Shown here in pieces: positions 15,001-24,000 of a stretch of 64,000 bases of DNA (position 1 is its first letter; every line of letters starts with the position of its first letter). The DNA is from Puniceicoccales bacterium (GTDB lineage: Bacteria > Verrucomicrobiota > Verrucomicrobiia > Opitutales > LL51). A program made the position numbers. The stretch spans positions 349 through 64,348 of the forward strand of contig JAIRRZ010000030.1 of the NCBI GenBank assembly GCA_031255715.1, in the 5' to 3' direction.

Positions 15001-18000
15001 AGTTATATCCCGATGTGCTAGACGTGACACAAACAATCGCAAAACTAACCAAAACATGTCCAACAATTCAACAACTGTTAATGAAAATAACCTATGAAGA
15101 CAATCATCGTACCCACGGTATTTTTGAAACTATTATACAAATACTTCAGATATTAAACCAAAACAAAGTACCTTCTAATATATTAAATATACTTCTTGAA
15201 ATTATTCAATCTGCAGAACTCAGCACTTCATCAAATATTCAATCTATAAAATTCCACATTCCATCAAAGTTGTCATCATGGGCAGGACCTCACTTAGACG
15301 CACTTGATAAGATTATTGATTTGCTGAATACCAACAATGAGATCGGAATAGCTTTGAAACATATATGCGAAAGTGAGTTGAAACAAGAAAGTTTTGAAAA
15401 CTGGAAAAGCAATCAATTCGAACACTCGAGCCATGGCAGCATCACTGATATTAAAAACCAACTAAATTCACGTAATATTAAAAACCAACTAAATTCTCAC
15501 AAACAATCCCGTGCTAAAATATCCAATCAGGAAACATCGGAAGAATGTAGCCGGTAGGAATTACACACAACACACATAAAAAAAAACAAACCTCAGAAAA
15601 TATCTGAGGTTTCTCGTTATTCGGTTATCCCTGATTACGAAATAAAGTTTGAGCACCTTGACTCGTCTTATCTGCAACTTTCGAGGATAGCTCATTGATG
15701 TAAGACAATTGCATTACTTGCCATTGCAACTCCATTAGATTCGCCGTCGAAAAATTTGCTCCATTTTTATCAATTGTAAGTTTATTAATAGATTTTTCAA
15801 TTTCCTTATACGCGTCGCGCGCGTTCTGTACCATATTCAATACACCCTCTCCGGGAGTAACACGTTGTACCGGTTTAGGCTTCCAAAACCCATTACGTCC
15901 AACTGAACTCCCAACCGAATTCACCAAATTTGGATTCATCACATTTGGATTCATCACATTTTGAAATTCTTTCGATCTTCCAAATGCCGGCACAACCCCA
16001 TCATCAATTAGCAGCGCATCCGGTGAAATTTTTTCACCTCCAACACTCATTGCTTGATTCGCAAGCCTACTACTCGCCATATTTACATCCATACTTTCAT
16101 CCTTCCTTTATAATACATTCTGCTAACGCTATTGCGTCCATATCTTTCCCATTTTCTTTTATTTGATTTAAAATAGTATAACTTTCACCTCTTTGCTTTA
16201 CTTGATATAAAAGCATCCCATAAAATGCTTTTGCTATCTCACTTTCAGGATTTATCTTCAGCGCTTTCTCCATAAGTAATTTCGACGCCTCTGTATATTC
16301 CCCAAACACCATTCGCATAAATGCATACGCAACGTAAAGCAATTCATTCTGTGGACGAGCAGCAATCACACCTTCAAAGATAATTTCAGCATTTTTCCTT
16401 TTGCCACTTCCCGTCGCAACATATCCGATATTGACGAGCAAACGAAGCATCTCAGCTGAAATTGAGTCCTGCTTAAAATTTGTATCGTTGCAAAACAAAG
16501 ATAGCATCACCTTTAACGAATATTCTGTGTAATTTTCATCAATGTATCACCAACGGTACGTACAGTACCCGTAGCAACCGCTGCAACCGTACCCCAAGTT
16601 TGAACCATTGCTTGCAATTCCAAAAGGGTCCCTTGATCAATATCCGAAGCTTGAGAACCTTCGATCTTTTGGAGAGACGTTGCAAAACCTTTTTCAAAGG
16701 CTCTCATATAACTCACAAGCACCTTATATGTGTTGAAAATACTCAACCTATCTGTTAGATCTGCGCTATTACTTAGATCATCTGCTCCCGGCTTAAAACC
16801 CGGGCCATTATAACTTGCATAACTTGGAGAACCCTGACTCTCTGGCATATTTTTCCTTTTTCTTTAATTGTTAGCGACTATCACATCAATAGTCGACAAT
16901 TGAGAAAATATACAAAATTTAAATAAATACAACATATTTTATTTAAAATTAGTAACTATTTCACGAGCACTCTCAAGTGCATTCTTCAGCTTCTCATATA
17001 CTGAGAATTCCTCAGGTGCTAAGCCGGTTGCAATGTGCTCTTTTACCCATTGCTGATACTGGACAATTTCTTGTAATATTTCTCGACGATAACTGCCATC
17101 ACTATCGTTCAGCAGCTGACGCTCCATGTCGACCAAGGTCAAACGCTTTAACTTTTTTGTATCAGTATCCATTCTATCCCAAGCGATTTATATAAAATGT
17201 TAGCCACTTTCTCGTATAATAACACCCCATAATGCGTCCTGTCACAATCATCGGCATAAAATTTGACCCAATTGCGCTTATATTAATATCCATTCTTTAT
17301 TGAAAAATTTCTTTCAATGAAATTTAATAATCTCCCCTATCGCCAACAATCAACTTGAGCCATTAGATCAAATTAAAATCTAGCTTAACCTCTTCGTCCG
17401 CATTTTTAATCGTTACACTATCCTGTTCGATGTGATCGATAACGTAACCACTGGGTAACACAGATCCCTGGAAATATTTATTCCCATCTTTAATATTTAT
17501 CCAATCCAACCCTTGATTACTGAAGTTTACGCTATCGATCTTTCCGCCAAAAAATTTCTCAATGGTCAAATTTCGATCCGTTGATACGGAAATCGCAAAG
17601 CTTAGCTGCGCTTTTTTCTTAAATACTTTTTCAAGTTCACTCCGCGCTTTAGCCCAATCCTCTTTATCGTTGTCGCTAATCGTTCCCCGAATCTCTACAC
17701 CTAAATCATTGACACCAACTTCTAGTTTTTCTTTAAATCGGCGCTCCAAAAGAATATCTTTTGCAATCTTGATTGCTGAATCCTTAACCAATACTTCGTC
17801 TTTAATATTAGTTATTCCTTTTATGGATTGTATTTCTGCTTTTAATTTTTTCCAAATTTCTGCCTTTTTAATATATCCCATTGCGACGATCTCACCAAAC
17901 TCTTTTGACCTTTCAAGAACAACACCTTGCTTTGATTGTTGTACGATCTCGCTGGCTCTATTGACCAGTTTTTCCATACAGAAAATCCTTATTAAAATAT

Positions 18001-21000: not shown

Positions 21001-24000
21001 AAACTACCAATAACGAGTAGTTTTGATCCGAGTGAAGGAAAAATAGAAGAGAAGCTCAAAAAAGTTTTAAATATTGGGACAGTTGATGGATTAGTGATGC
21101 AGCTTTTGCGGCCGGAAATCAAAGATCGGAGTTTATTGACGCCCATACATTTTCGGGCAAAGATCCGAGAAATTCGGGAACTACTAAAGGTCAATCGGGA
21201 TCAGCGAACAGGTATTAACCCTGAGCTTTACGCACGCATTGATGCCTTGCTACAGGAGGAGGAAGAAAAATCCGAGCTTCTCGATCAATACCGCCACATG
21301 TTACTATTGGGATAGTAAGAAGGTGGAAAATTAAATCTACTCACGATGGAATTTTTTCACTTTGAGTGGATTTTTGCTATCCATGGTAAAATTCTTCTAT
21401 TCAAGATGAAGTTCTTCCACTCGAGGTGAAATTTTTCTATTCACGATAAAATCCTTTTATCTAGACTATCACTTGCGGTGAAAATTTTTCATTCACGGTA
21501 GAATTCCTCCATTCGGTCTTCTATTTAGAATAGAATTTTTTCATTTTCAGCTTACTTTTTTCCTAATGCAACCTTGGCATCCTCTAATGTTGTTATCTCT
21601 TTCCCCGTTATAACCTTTGCAGCTTTTATAATGATCGTTTGCTTATCATCAGAAAGGCTTGGATTGTCTTTTATGATCGTCAGGGCCGTTTCCGTGATAC
21701 ATTTTTTTATTTCTTTCTTTTGCATGCCAGGTCGAAGAACTGTTTCTCCAGTGGTACGACCTACACCAAGTTCCTCATGCTTCTCCTTAGGAAAATAATC
21801 AAGAAGCTTATTCAAAGAACTACCAAGACGAATGGCAGAATCAAAATCACGACTCTCCAATAGCGATATAAATCCTGCCAATTTTTGGGACGCGTCATCA
21901 GTCTGCGCCAAGGATAACATTTGTTTGTCAAAATCTTTAAGAGCTTGGTTTGGAAGTAAAAATATCGTTAAAACTTCAGTAGGAGTCTCCTTTTTCGGTT
22001 CGCCACGTATGAATTGAATGTCTCCTGCGCGCCGCTCAGTACACTCGAAATTGCTTGTTCGCTGGTCCTGTTCGTCCTTTAAAAGAGGCACATATGCAAA
22101 CTTCTGAACACCATTCTCCTGCGTAGACCGACACTCTTCGAAAACAACTAATGCAGGCACTTCTTCACCCTTAGGCACCATTTTCATAAAAACATCCTTT
22201 TGCAAACCAAATCGAACAGAAGCTCCAACGACAAAACCTTCGCGCACCAGATCTTGTATTCCTTCACGAACCTCATTTTTTATATTGTCTAAGGCTGTGG
22301 AATTATCGTATATTTTTGCCAATAACTCTCCCGCTTTACCACTTTCGTCGTCCAACCAGCTTGGATCTTTTATGGTATTCATCAACCCATCGATGATACC
22401 TTTCATTTCAGTTTCCAAAAACTGCTTTAACTCATTTTTTAAAGTCTGCTCTTTGCAATCAAGATTGTCATACAATGCGCATAAACATGAGAAGCTTTCC
22501 GCTCTCTTTAATGCATCCACTTCTTGATTTTTAACACTTTCTTTCCACCCATTCATCTTTCCTTCGTAATCAACTGTCCCGTTATTCCCTTCCTTACATT
22601 TTACGCTATGCTTTGCGGTTGCTCCCAATAGTGCAGCTTTCTGTTCCTCTGAACATAACTCCTTCTTATGCTTGTATTGATCCTTTAAAATCACATGTTT
22701 AAATTTCTTAAAATCTCTCGAAGAGATTTGTACGGTCCTACTTGAATTTAATTCGGACTTCATTTCAACTTTCGGCTTCCCAAACCACCGAGCTTTTTTA
22801 TCGTAACAACATAATTTATACCATTTATTTGCCCCTCCACCGTTTTCGTTTCGCCTCTCTTTGCTTCTCTACGCGCCGCATTTATTTCTTCCTTAAATGC
22901 AGTAACTTGTGTTTGAATTTTAATCATTTTTACTTCTCTAATTGCGAACATGCTATAATTAATTCACCATTTTGCAAGCTTTATTTCCTCTTGCATAAAT
23001 CTCATTTCTTTCAGCAATTTTTGTTGTTTTTACAAATAAATATACCTTCCTTATTCGATGCAATTGCACGGTTGAGCGAAATTATTTCATTTACGATGGA
23101 ATTATTTCACCCACAATGAAATTTCTCCATTTGTAGTGGAATTTTTTTTCAAAAAAATAGAATTTCTATTCCGAAATCAATTTCACAAAAAAATGGCCAT
23201 CATATCTTTTACGATCGCCATTGTTCATTTTCTAAATCTATTTCACTTTTTTCTAATTCTATTTTCTTTTATTTATCGCAATTAAATCACAATTAATTCG
23301 CCTTTTGCGAGTTTTTATCTATCTCCTTTGAGCAATTTTCGGTATTCCTGCAAATAGGTACGCACCTCATCCGATGTAATTACACGCTCGGGAAATGTTT
23401 TTTTAGCTATCTCAATATAGCGATGGCTCTCATCCGATATCATCTCTAACCAAAATTTTCCCTCCATATTGTAAACATATTCATAGCGTAAATCGCAGTT
23501 CCATAGACGTACAAATGATAGCGTCGTCACCCGATCTCCCATCCAATCCCTAGATAGGAGCGTCGGCATATCGCCATCGGATATAACCTTTGCCCAAACT
23601 TTTAATAAATTCTGTGCGGGAATATTAAATAAATTATCATAATGTAAAAATTGATCCATCATGTAAAGCAAATGCCCCTTAAGTCCGCGATAGCCGCGAC
23701 CAGACCCACTGCGATGACTTACCCAACCTGGAATACTCCCCGCTAATAATGCCGCCTTATGATACATAAAACGATTGCAGTGCTCAAAATACACTGAAAA
23801 TGATTTGTCATTGAAAGACTCAAAATTTCGACGAATAATGGCGATCATTTCCTCCTGGCCATAGCGAATGCTCGCAAATCCATCAAAGTTGCGCAAAAAA
23901 TCGAGCTTCAATGAAAAATAAATGATTGGCCATGGATCTTCACCGCGGGACATCGCAAATAAAACGCGAGGCGAAATTACACCCGCCCGTTCCATTGCCC

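Follow-up and report, generated by a model that had tools for sequence, protein, structure and literature searches.

The 64,000-nt contig stretch analysed here (hereafter the window, to whose positions all coordinates refer) derives from an uncultured Puniceicoccales bacterium and carries at 15625-21315 an incomplete but genuine type III secretion system (T3SS) locus, consisting of needle, inner-ring and gatekeeper genes. With a probability of roughly 0.75 we regard this locus as a stable sub-locus of an injectisome. Because genes that are useless without an export apparatus are strongly conserved and kept under purifying selection, it is just as probable that the export gate, the ATPase complex, the secretin, SctJ and the translocators are encoded elsewhere in the chromosome. 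The whole would then represent a functional system acting on a eukaryotic host cell.

Gene content of the locus

Nine intact open reading frames (ORFs) are present where a first-pass annotation had placed them, and their families were assigned by Pfam and NCBIfam profile searches. Every gene named in that annotation, i.e., sctD, sctE, sctF, an sctG-like gene, sctI, an sctW-like gene, and the genes for TyeA and SycN, received support from these searches. The remaining 141-aa ORF, for which only the analogy to yscX had implied an identity, encodes SctX (PF09474, TIGR02502). The genes form two divergent operons. sctD, sctE, sctF, a gene for a tetratricopeptide repeat (TPR) protein in the position of sctG, and sctI are located on the minus strand, and the sctW-like gatekeeper gene, tyeA, the sycN-like gene, and sctX on the plus strand. 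The features are as follows.

15578-15612, minus strand: intrinsic terminator after sctI (stem at 15588-15612)
15625-16092, minus strand: sctI, inner rod/adaptor, 155 aa (PF17001)
16097-16510, minus strand: TPR protein in sctG position, probable needle-subunit chaperone, 137 aa (PF09613, NF052304)
16513-16848, minus strand: sctF, needle subunit, 111 aa (PF09392)
16939-17172, minus strand: sctE, needle co-chaperone, 77 aa (PF08988, TIGR02501)
17363-18805, minus strand: sctD, ring protein of the inner membrane, 480 aa counted from the conserved ATG (TIGR02500, structure model, Foldseek)
18806-18936, no strand: divergent control region, 131 bp (alignment of eight lineages, promoter scan)
18937-19995, plus strand: sctW-like gatekeeper, YopN-type N-terminal part, 352 aa (TIGR02568, 7yyg, natural fusions)
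19996-20168, plus strand: insert between sctW and tyeA, 173 nt, with a 53-aa ORF (20006-20167)
20169-20477, plus strand: tyeA, gatekeeper C-terminal subunit, 102 aa (PF09059)
20478-20864, plus strand: sycN-like gatekeeper chaperone, 128 aa (TIGR02503, PF21665)
20890-21315, plus strand: sctX (YscX family), 141 aa (PF09474, TIGR02502)
47083-47565, minus strand: CesT-family T3SS chaperone (PF05932, E = 2e-19)

According to the first-pass annotation, its reading would fall if profile searches failed to support SctD, SctF, and SctW. SctD scored above its curated cut-off, whereas SctF and SctW were matched with scores below theirs.

Ring, needle and rod genes

SctD was matched by TIGR02500 (E = 1e-32, 113.6 bits at a cut-off of 86), by PF16697 (E = 6e-15), and by the forkhead-associated (FHA) domain family PF00498. 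An AlphaFold2 model with 20 homologues in the alignment reached a predicted local distance difference test (pLDDT) value of 74 and shows, in the numbering of a 495-aa ORF, an FHA beta-sandwich (18-109), a disordered linker, a transmembrane helix (189-219), three alpha/beta domains of the ring-building type, and a beta domain at the C-terminus. This is the make-up of an injectisome ring protein, in which one transmembrane helix joins an FHA-like domain in the cytoplasm to ring-building domains in the periplasm. The predicted fold is confirmed by Foldseek matches of the model to the periplasmic domain of YscD (4alz, E = 6.6e-10), to MxiG, to the FHA domain of CT664/CdsD (3gqs, template modelling (TM) score 0.85), and to the periplasmic domain of CdsD (4qo6/4qq0, TM score 0.70-0.73). 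The 495-aa ORF is the mechanical prediction for 17363-18850 and starts at the upstream TTG 18850. Due to the fact that the Met at residue 16 is invariant in 20 homologues, and that TTG 18850 falls within an invariant TTGACT block of the intergenic alignment, the most likely start of SctD is ATG 18805, which results in a protein of 480 aa.

SctE was identified by PF08988 (E = 3.5e-5, above the Pfam cut-off) and TIGR02501 (E = 2e-5). In case of SctF, PF09392 gave E = 8.7e-6 and 26.3 bits, slightly under the cut-off of 29.4. sctF is situated where a needle gene is expected, between sctE and the TPR gene, and the helical core of the protein is conserved with a C-terminus (...KITQNIR) kept in 11 relatives, while the first ~30 aa are variable. 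A weak match to YscF was observed at the C-terminal helix, and a profile search of the PDB yielded no specific match for SctF. The TPR protein has the position and size of SctG, and its best profile scores are those of PF09613 HrpB1_HrpK (E = 3.2e-8, above the cut-off) and CdsG (NF052304, E = 8e-7) rather than that of YscG (E = 0.03-0.1); in the PDB its profile found generic TPR matches only. SctI, which together with SctF supplies the expected pair of rod and needle, was matched by PF17001 (E = 3.6e-8, above the cut-off), TIGR02497 (E = 0.0065), and weakly by HrpB2 (E = 3e-4). Its N-terminal half is variable and its C-terminal part conserved, and it is 26% identical to YscI over 73 aa.

Downstream of sctI, a strong terminator had been annotated at 15579-15618. 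Judged by its 10-bp stem and 5-nt loop (15588-15612) on the minus strand, followed by a G and nine T, this predicted terminator is real.

Gatekeeper, chaperone and SctX genes

TIGR02568 matched SctW with E = 5e-6 over residues 209-334, i.e., in the C-terminal half alone and far under the cut-off. A clade profile of eleven SctW homologues matched PDB entry 7yyg, “putative outer protein N”, with E = 1.6e-4, and in hhalign gave a weak collinear match to the C-terminal half of YopN (E = 0.013). The AlphaFold2 model of SctW from the single sequence was too poor for use (pLDDT 40). The strongest argument for the identity of SctW is contextual: in the related loci L005 and L017 an in-frame fusion unites it with tyeA, resulting in one protein of ~450-465 aa. 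The weak TIGR02568 match, the 7yyg match, and the fusion to TyeA are the features that place SctW among the gatekeepers. Whereas the first-pass annotation saw a split YopN plus TyeA type rather than the fused CopN type, this applies to the window but not to the clade as a whole, as L005 and L017 show.

TyeA itself was matched by PF09059 above the cut-off (E = 6.5e-11). In most relatives, sctW and tyeA are separated by 12-41 nt; the 173-nt insert of the window occurs also in L009. An independent 204-nt insert in L002 and L015 (8596-8790 and 8626-8829, respectively) codes for a chimera of 56 aa that combines the N-terminus of TyeA with the C-terminus of SctW. The 53-aa ORF of the insert shared by the window and L009 shows no clear likeness to TyeA or SctW. 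Probably the 173-nt insert is a remnant of a junction duplication and not a gene. We rejected this ORF as a genuine T3SS gene, since it lacks a family match, is missing from most relatives, and has in L002/L015 an analogue that arose as a junction duplication.

The SycN-like protein was matched by TIGR02503 (E = 1.9e-7) and PF21665 (E = 1.1e-4), both under the cut-off. In contrast, the scores of SctX are high (PF09474, E = 2e-21, 76.9 bits at a cut-off of 25; TIGR02502, E = 5e-21, 75.2 bits at a cut-off of 30). SctX is 17% identical to YscX and had no direct sequence match among the solved YscX/AscX chains in the PDB, and its C-terminus, ...RHMLLLG, is invariant in the alignments. In Yersinia, SctX contacts the SctV ring via its C-terminal helix (PMC9163089). 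The gene following sctX is convergent and unrelated.

Both operons diverge from 18806-18936, a region in which several blocks are invariant across eight lineages, although synonymous sites among these lineages are largely saturated. One conserved block is AGTCAA at 18845-18850 (TTGACT on the sctD strand). On the sctW strand, the promoter scan found a sigma-70-like arrangement upstream of sctW, consisting of TTGCCA at 18887-18892, 16 nt, and TACATT ending at 18914. We presume from the alignment that the conserved blocks act as promoters.

In the proposed mechanism, SctD would form the outer ring of the inner membrane and hold the sorting platform by means of its FHA domain in the cytoplasm. The needle subunit SctF would be kept monomeric by two small chaperones, SctE and the TPR protein, and SctI would provide the inner rod. 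By analogy to Yersinia, SctW, TyeA and the SycN-type chaperone may hold effectors back until host contact, and SctX may be exported, bind the export gate SctV, and be required if early substrates are to be exported. The locus would therewith group early substrates, their chaperones, and the proteins of the substrate switch.

Relatives and origin

Homologues of SctD with 42-85% identity are nearly all labelled “Puniceicoccales bacterium” metagenome-assembled genomes (MAGs) of the Verrucomicrobiota. A scan of a genome collection with SctD resulted in nine species-level MAGs with isolate names including Gsp477_bin70, Ncb351_bin30, and Nc350_bin186. Carriers of the locus include JAIRZB01 (Gsp477_bin70), JAISXO01 (Nc350_bin186), JAITJQ01 (Pcl387_bin18), and CAMWJR01. 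In a study using the same naming scheme, Gsp477 stands for the lower termite Glyptotermes and Ncb351 for the lower termite Neotermes cubanus (PMC11707648). The closest relatives are therefore Puniceicoccales MAGs, several of them from lower-termite guts, and the annotated origin in the Planctomycetes-Verrucomicrobia-Chlamydiae (PVC) superphylum is in agreement with this. The Logan assembly of SRR14710884 carries an identical copy of the nine-gene locus. The SctD proteins of the relatives are already annotated as such, i.e., automated pipelines name these homologues correctly; none of the papers searched ties Puniceicoccales to type III secretion.

The window also contains an ORF for a MurC-MurB fusion of 722 aa at 53135-55303, consistent with the Verrucomicrobiota; a MurB/MurC fusion enzyme in Verrucomicrobium spinosum is named in the title of PMC4803751.

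Microsynteny and selection

The divergent nine-gene unit was observed with the same order in 11 independent related loci (SctD 42-85% identical; related loci are given L numbers). The flanks are shared as well, with plsX on one side and, on the other, a variable gene followed by tRNA-Arg(ACG), tRNA-Ala(GGC), and fabF. The first-pass annotation had described the locus as truncated on both flanks. The continuations are indeed missing, but the implied loss is not borne out: since the same unit and the same flanks recur down to 42% SctD identity, the “truncation” appears, as judged from this synteny, to be an ancestral and stable state of a sub-locus and not decay.

Such conservation also bears on the idea that horizontal transfer recently brought a piece of a proteobacterial Ysc-type cluster to a site beside a tRNA gene, where it was cut short as it integrated. 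tRNA-Arg and tRNA-Ala are located ~1 kb from the locus, and the accessory set of SctX, SycN, and TyeA has been described as Ysc-specific (PMC9163089). However, the context of tRNA, fabF, and plsX is common down to 42% SctD identity, so that any acquisition predates the clade. Furthermore, the GC content of the locus (0.36-0.40) fits that of the window, identities to the Yersinia proteins do not exceed 26% with most pairs undetectable, and in its FHA domain SctD is closer to chlamydial CdsD than it is to YscD. A recent island is thus very unlikely.

The ratio of nonsynonymous to synonymous substitution rates (dN/dS), computed against the nearest relative L009, is 0.16 for SctD, 0.12 for SctE, 0.15 for the TPR protein, 0.12 for SctW, 0.14 for TyeA, 0.08 for SycN, and 0.07 for SctX. 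These seven of the nine T3SS genes are similar to FabF (0.09), which was included for comparison. SctF (0.64) and SctI (0.55), both with variable N-termini, evolve faster. All nine ORFs are intact in lineages at saturated synonymous divergence.

Missing parts of the system

Pfam scans covered essentially all ORFs of the window of at least 120 aa, and tblastn (E ≤ 0.01) was run with 18 Yersinia queries (SctV, N, O, P, Q, R, S, T, U, C, J, K, L, and Y, LcrH, YopB, YopD, and LcrV). None of these 18 queries found a match, be it in the window or among 16 related loci. Core T3SS genes beyond those of the locus were seen neither in the 64-kb window nor, in 11 relatives, at up to 10 kb from the locus, in agreement with the annotated absence of sctJ/K/L/N, yscY/sctV, export-gate, secretin, and translocator genes from the window. 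Outside the locus, the ORFs matched in these scans belong to housekeeping functions (among them RuvX, transketolase, SecA, ClpX, FabF, PlsX, L25, Pth, SSB, L9, UvrD, BatA-D, PheS, MalQ, the MurC-MurB fusion, FtsK, AspS, and an MFS transporter), and the CesT chaperone is the sole further T3SS-related match. The conserved core is truly absent from the neighbourhood; for the poorly conserved small parts SctK, SctL, SctO, SctP, and SctY and for the translocators the absence is less certain.

Further searches were directed at the lineage as a whole. The 120 matches listed for a protein search with YscV were limited to Aeromonas, Photorhabdus, and further sequences of the Ysc family that are likewise very close. 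HMMER over cluster representatives resulted in 150 SctV representatives, none of which could be tied to the lineage. A profile of 8 AT-rich SctV candidates turned generic and led to marine gammaproteobacteria, and the contexts of the SctV candidates P0151, P0167, P0153, and P0196 are those of other organisms with contiguous clusters. Two metagenome scans with SctX alignments of the lineage found no relative, with termite metagenomes seemingly outside that collection. The single genome-collection scan, with SctD as query, gave synteny and taxonomy but no second T3SS locus. Beyond the window ends, RuvX led to no more than a Logan contig of 11 kb, and for the last gene of the window no record was found.

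Several of these observations weigh against a stable sub-locus of a complete injectisome. No SctV, SctN, SctC, SctJ, or SctRSTU of the lineage was recovered in the database searches. SctY, which in Yersinia is an obligate partner for SctX, was not found beside sctX or in the window (tblastn with YscY; the SctY model gave only E = 0.059, on the TPR protein), and YscB, the partner of SycN, is missing as well. The scores of SctF, SycN, and SctW lie below the curated family cut-offs. Finally, the gene set is not rigid, as sctX has moved or is absent from the locus in four relatives (L011, L012, L013, and L016). In L012 and L011, sctX is located 1.9 kb off, with two genes inserted between sycN and sctX (5938-7840 and 133-2069, respectively). 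In L013 (1-8093) and L016, it does not occur within 8 kb, and L013 has a CesT-family chaperone gene (6141-6641) near that place.

Alternatively, the locus would be a relic, in which the export apparatus was lost and the nine genes remain as a non-functional remnant or were reused. Just nine of about twenty T3SS genes are seen, none of the highly conserved core genes turned up in the 64 kb of the window or beside the locus in 11 relatives, sctX moved or vanished in some relatives, and the sctW-tyeA junction bears the scars of duplication. Nevertheless, we consider a relic improbable, due to the nine ORFs that are intact at saturated synonymous divergence, to dN/dS values like that of FabF (0.07-0.16 for seven of the genes), and to the retained CesT-type chaperones. 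In addition, no role is known for a needle subunit, its chaperones, or a gatekeeper without an export apparatus. The reading as an injectisome sub-locus is also favoured by the CesT-family T3SS chaperones, one at another place in the window and one adjoining the locus of L013, and by an ankyrin-repeat protein adjoining that of L002.

Assuming that the remaining genes of the injectisome are encoded elsewhere, they might form one ordinary large cluster, giving a layout of two loci instead of a chlamydia-like scatter. The data place no constraint on the arrangement of these genes, and many T3SS, that of pCD1 included, are made up of few operons. Ongoing scattering is hinted at, indirectly, by the shifted position of sctX, by the CesT module 26 kb from the locus, and by the CesT gene of L013. 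On balance, a layout of two loci is rather unlikely.

Other features of the neighbourhood

The CesT chaperone gene (47083-47565) is located 26 kb from the locus and flanked by ORFs of 159 aa (46591-47070) and 361 aa (47677-48762) without a family match. Probably, 46591-48762 represents a chaperone/effector module that would belong to the same T3SS. In L002 (Nc350_bin186), a 549-aa ankyrin-repeat protein, a eukaryote-like candidate effector, is encoded at 4588-6237 beside the T3SS locus.

The convergent gap between the stop codons of sctX and of a 403-aa ORF is filled at 21336-21545 by a 20-nt unit (approximately TTCYAYTCRNGRTGRAAWTTYT) that recurs about 9-10 times in degenerate form with a period of 20, and no obvious terminator was found in this repeat gap. 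At 21552-22951, the 403-aa ORF and an ORF of 63 aa overlap by 4 nt and jointly resemble a single 534-aa ORF adjoining sctX in L012 (3784-5388). They may be two genes or the parts of one that was split or frameshifted, have no family match, and are candidates for a secreted protein.

On the opposite side, tRNA-Ala(GGC) and tRNA-Arg(ACG) are situated near sctI at 13445-14603. The pair is kept in six relatives; both genes are separated by 5-10 nt in L003 and L017 and by ~1 kb in the window. The slot between sctI and tRNA-Arg is occupied by a different gene in each lineage, in case of the window by a 250-aa ORF with a 42-nt internal repeat. Two ORFs with a prepilin-type N-terminal methylation motif at 24405-25998 are kept beside the locus in several relatives. 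A strong negative AT skew (-0.236) was observed at 9866-12000, where the ORFs (430 aa and two of 109 aa, one of them Ser-rich) lack a family match.

A Ser/Thr protein kinase gene is present at 29640-30857, 11 kb from the gene of the FHA-bearing SctD. As a Pkn5-like partner of the T3SS the kinase was dropped, since it does not occur beside the locus in the relatives examined.

Implications

It is tempting to speculate, tentatively and with clearly less support than for the sub-locus itself, that the system represents an undescribed injectisome family of verrucomicrobial symbionts associated with the guts of lower termites, perhaps those of the “Nucleococcus cluster” that dwell in protists. Standing between the chlamydial and Ysc families, it would be characterized by SctX without adjacent SctY-SctV, a chlamydia-like SctD, a gatekeeper that switches from fused to split or back, and a layout whose dispersal is ancestral. 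If so, SctX and the YopN/TyeA/SycN module would predate the gammaproteobacterial Ysc family and be spread more widely than it. A strong SctX occurs here in a system otherwise remote from Ysc, although the literature confines SctX/SctY to Ysc. The presence of fused and split gatekeepers in one clade offers a natural experiment on YopN-TyeA versus MxiC/CopN architectures. The clade would also be the second PVC lineage after the Chlamydiae with a stably fragmented T3SS layout, which bears on the age of the dispersal in PVC bacteria.

Few studies have dealt with T3SS beyond the Proteobacteria and Chlamydiae. In lower-termite guts, many bacteria live on or inside flagellates, and a role of the system in termite-gut symbiosis is likely. 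T3SS in Verrucomicrobiota and dispersed T3SS in Chlamydiae are already known, and the understanding of T3SS function is unchanged.

Comparison with known systems

The likeness to Yersinia lies in the order within the operons and in the accessory genes. As annotated at first pass, yscD-E-F-G-(H)-I and yopN-tyeA-sycN-yscX of pCD1 recur here in the same internal order, including a needle gene with two small chaperone-like genes, a separate TyeA, SycN, and SctX. The mirroring of the Yersinia operons does not extend to their head-to-head pairing, since on pCD1 yopN faces yscN and the two operons are not adjacent, whereas here the sctD and sctW operons are head to head. Nor does it extend to the proteins, of which only SctI (26%), the SctD FHA domain (25%), and SctF (26%) gave significant identities in BLASTP against pCD1; overall, identity is 17-26% or undetectable by BLASTP, the latter for most pairs. 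On pCD1, sctI is followed by sctJ-K-L and yscX by yscY-yscV, but neither continuation exists here, and yscH/yopR has no counterpart. For the TPR protein, HrpB1 and CdsG give better scores than YscG does. Moreover, the locus is chromosomal and in a verrucomicrobium, in contrast to pCD1 of Yersinia. With respect to membership in the Ysc family, SctX is present, while SctY accompanying SctX with sctV following is not, and the apparatus proteins are not closely related. Both SctX and SctY are reported to be confined to Ysc-family systems and to be missing in Chlamydia (PMC9163089).

Chlamydia belongs to the same PVC superphylum. The clade profile of SctD matched the FHA domain of chlamydial CT664 with E = 4e-11, compared to about E = 4e-4 for YscD. 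The FHA domain is accordingly nearest to CT664, the periplasmic part resembles CdsD, and the best NCBIfam match of the TPR chaperone is CdsG. Chlamydial CdsD is much longer than the SctD of ~480 aa with a single FHA domain found here. CopN of Chlamydia is a gatekeeper of the fused type; here the gatekeeper is split in the window, and a fusion like that of CopN occurs in two relatives. A member of the Cds family would be expected to lack SctX and SctY and to have a fused gatekeeper, but the window has a strong SctX, which Chlamydia lacks (PMC9163089), and a split gatekeeper. In terms of layout, the locus is separated from all other core genes, stably across the clade; the chlamydial T3SS, consisting of 10 operons in five loci (PMC2734247), is a precedent for a working dispersed system.

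The T3SS of Verrucomicrobium spinosum occurs in the same phylum, but in a free-living organism of another class and order; PMC3681970 links it to interaction with eukaryotes. In Hrp2-type systems (Xanthomonas/Ralstonia), a TPR gene followed by a rod gene corresponds to the order hrpB1-hrpB2. Here, the TPR-rod pair comes after sctE-sctF, as the needle-chaperone genes of Ysc and Cds do, and TyeA, SycN, and SctX are not Hrp2-like. Considering its gene content, the system appears to be mixed, because it combines accessory genes otherwise restricted to the Ysc type (PMC9163089) with a chlamydia-like ring protein, whose FHA domain is nearest to CT664, and with a presumably dispersed layout of the kind known from Chlamydia.

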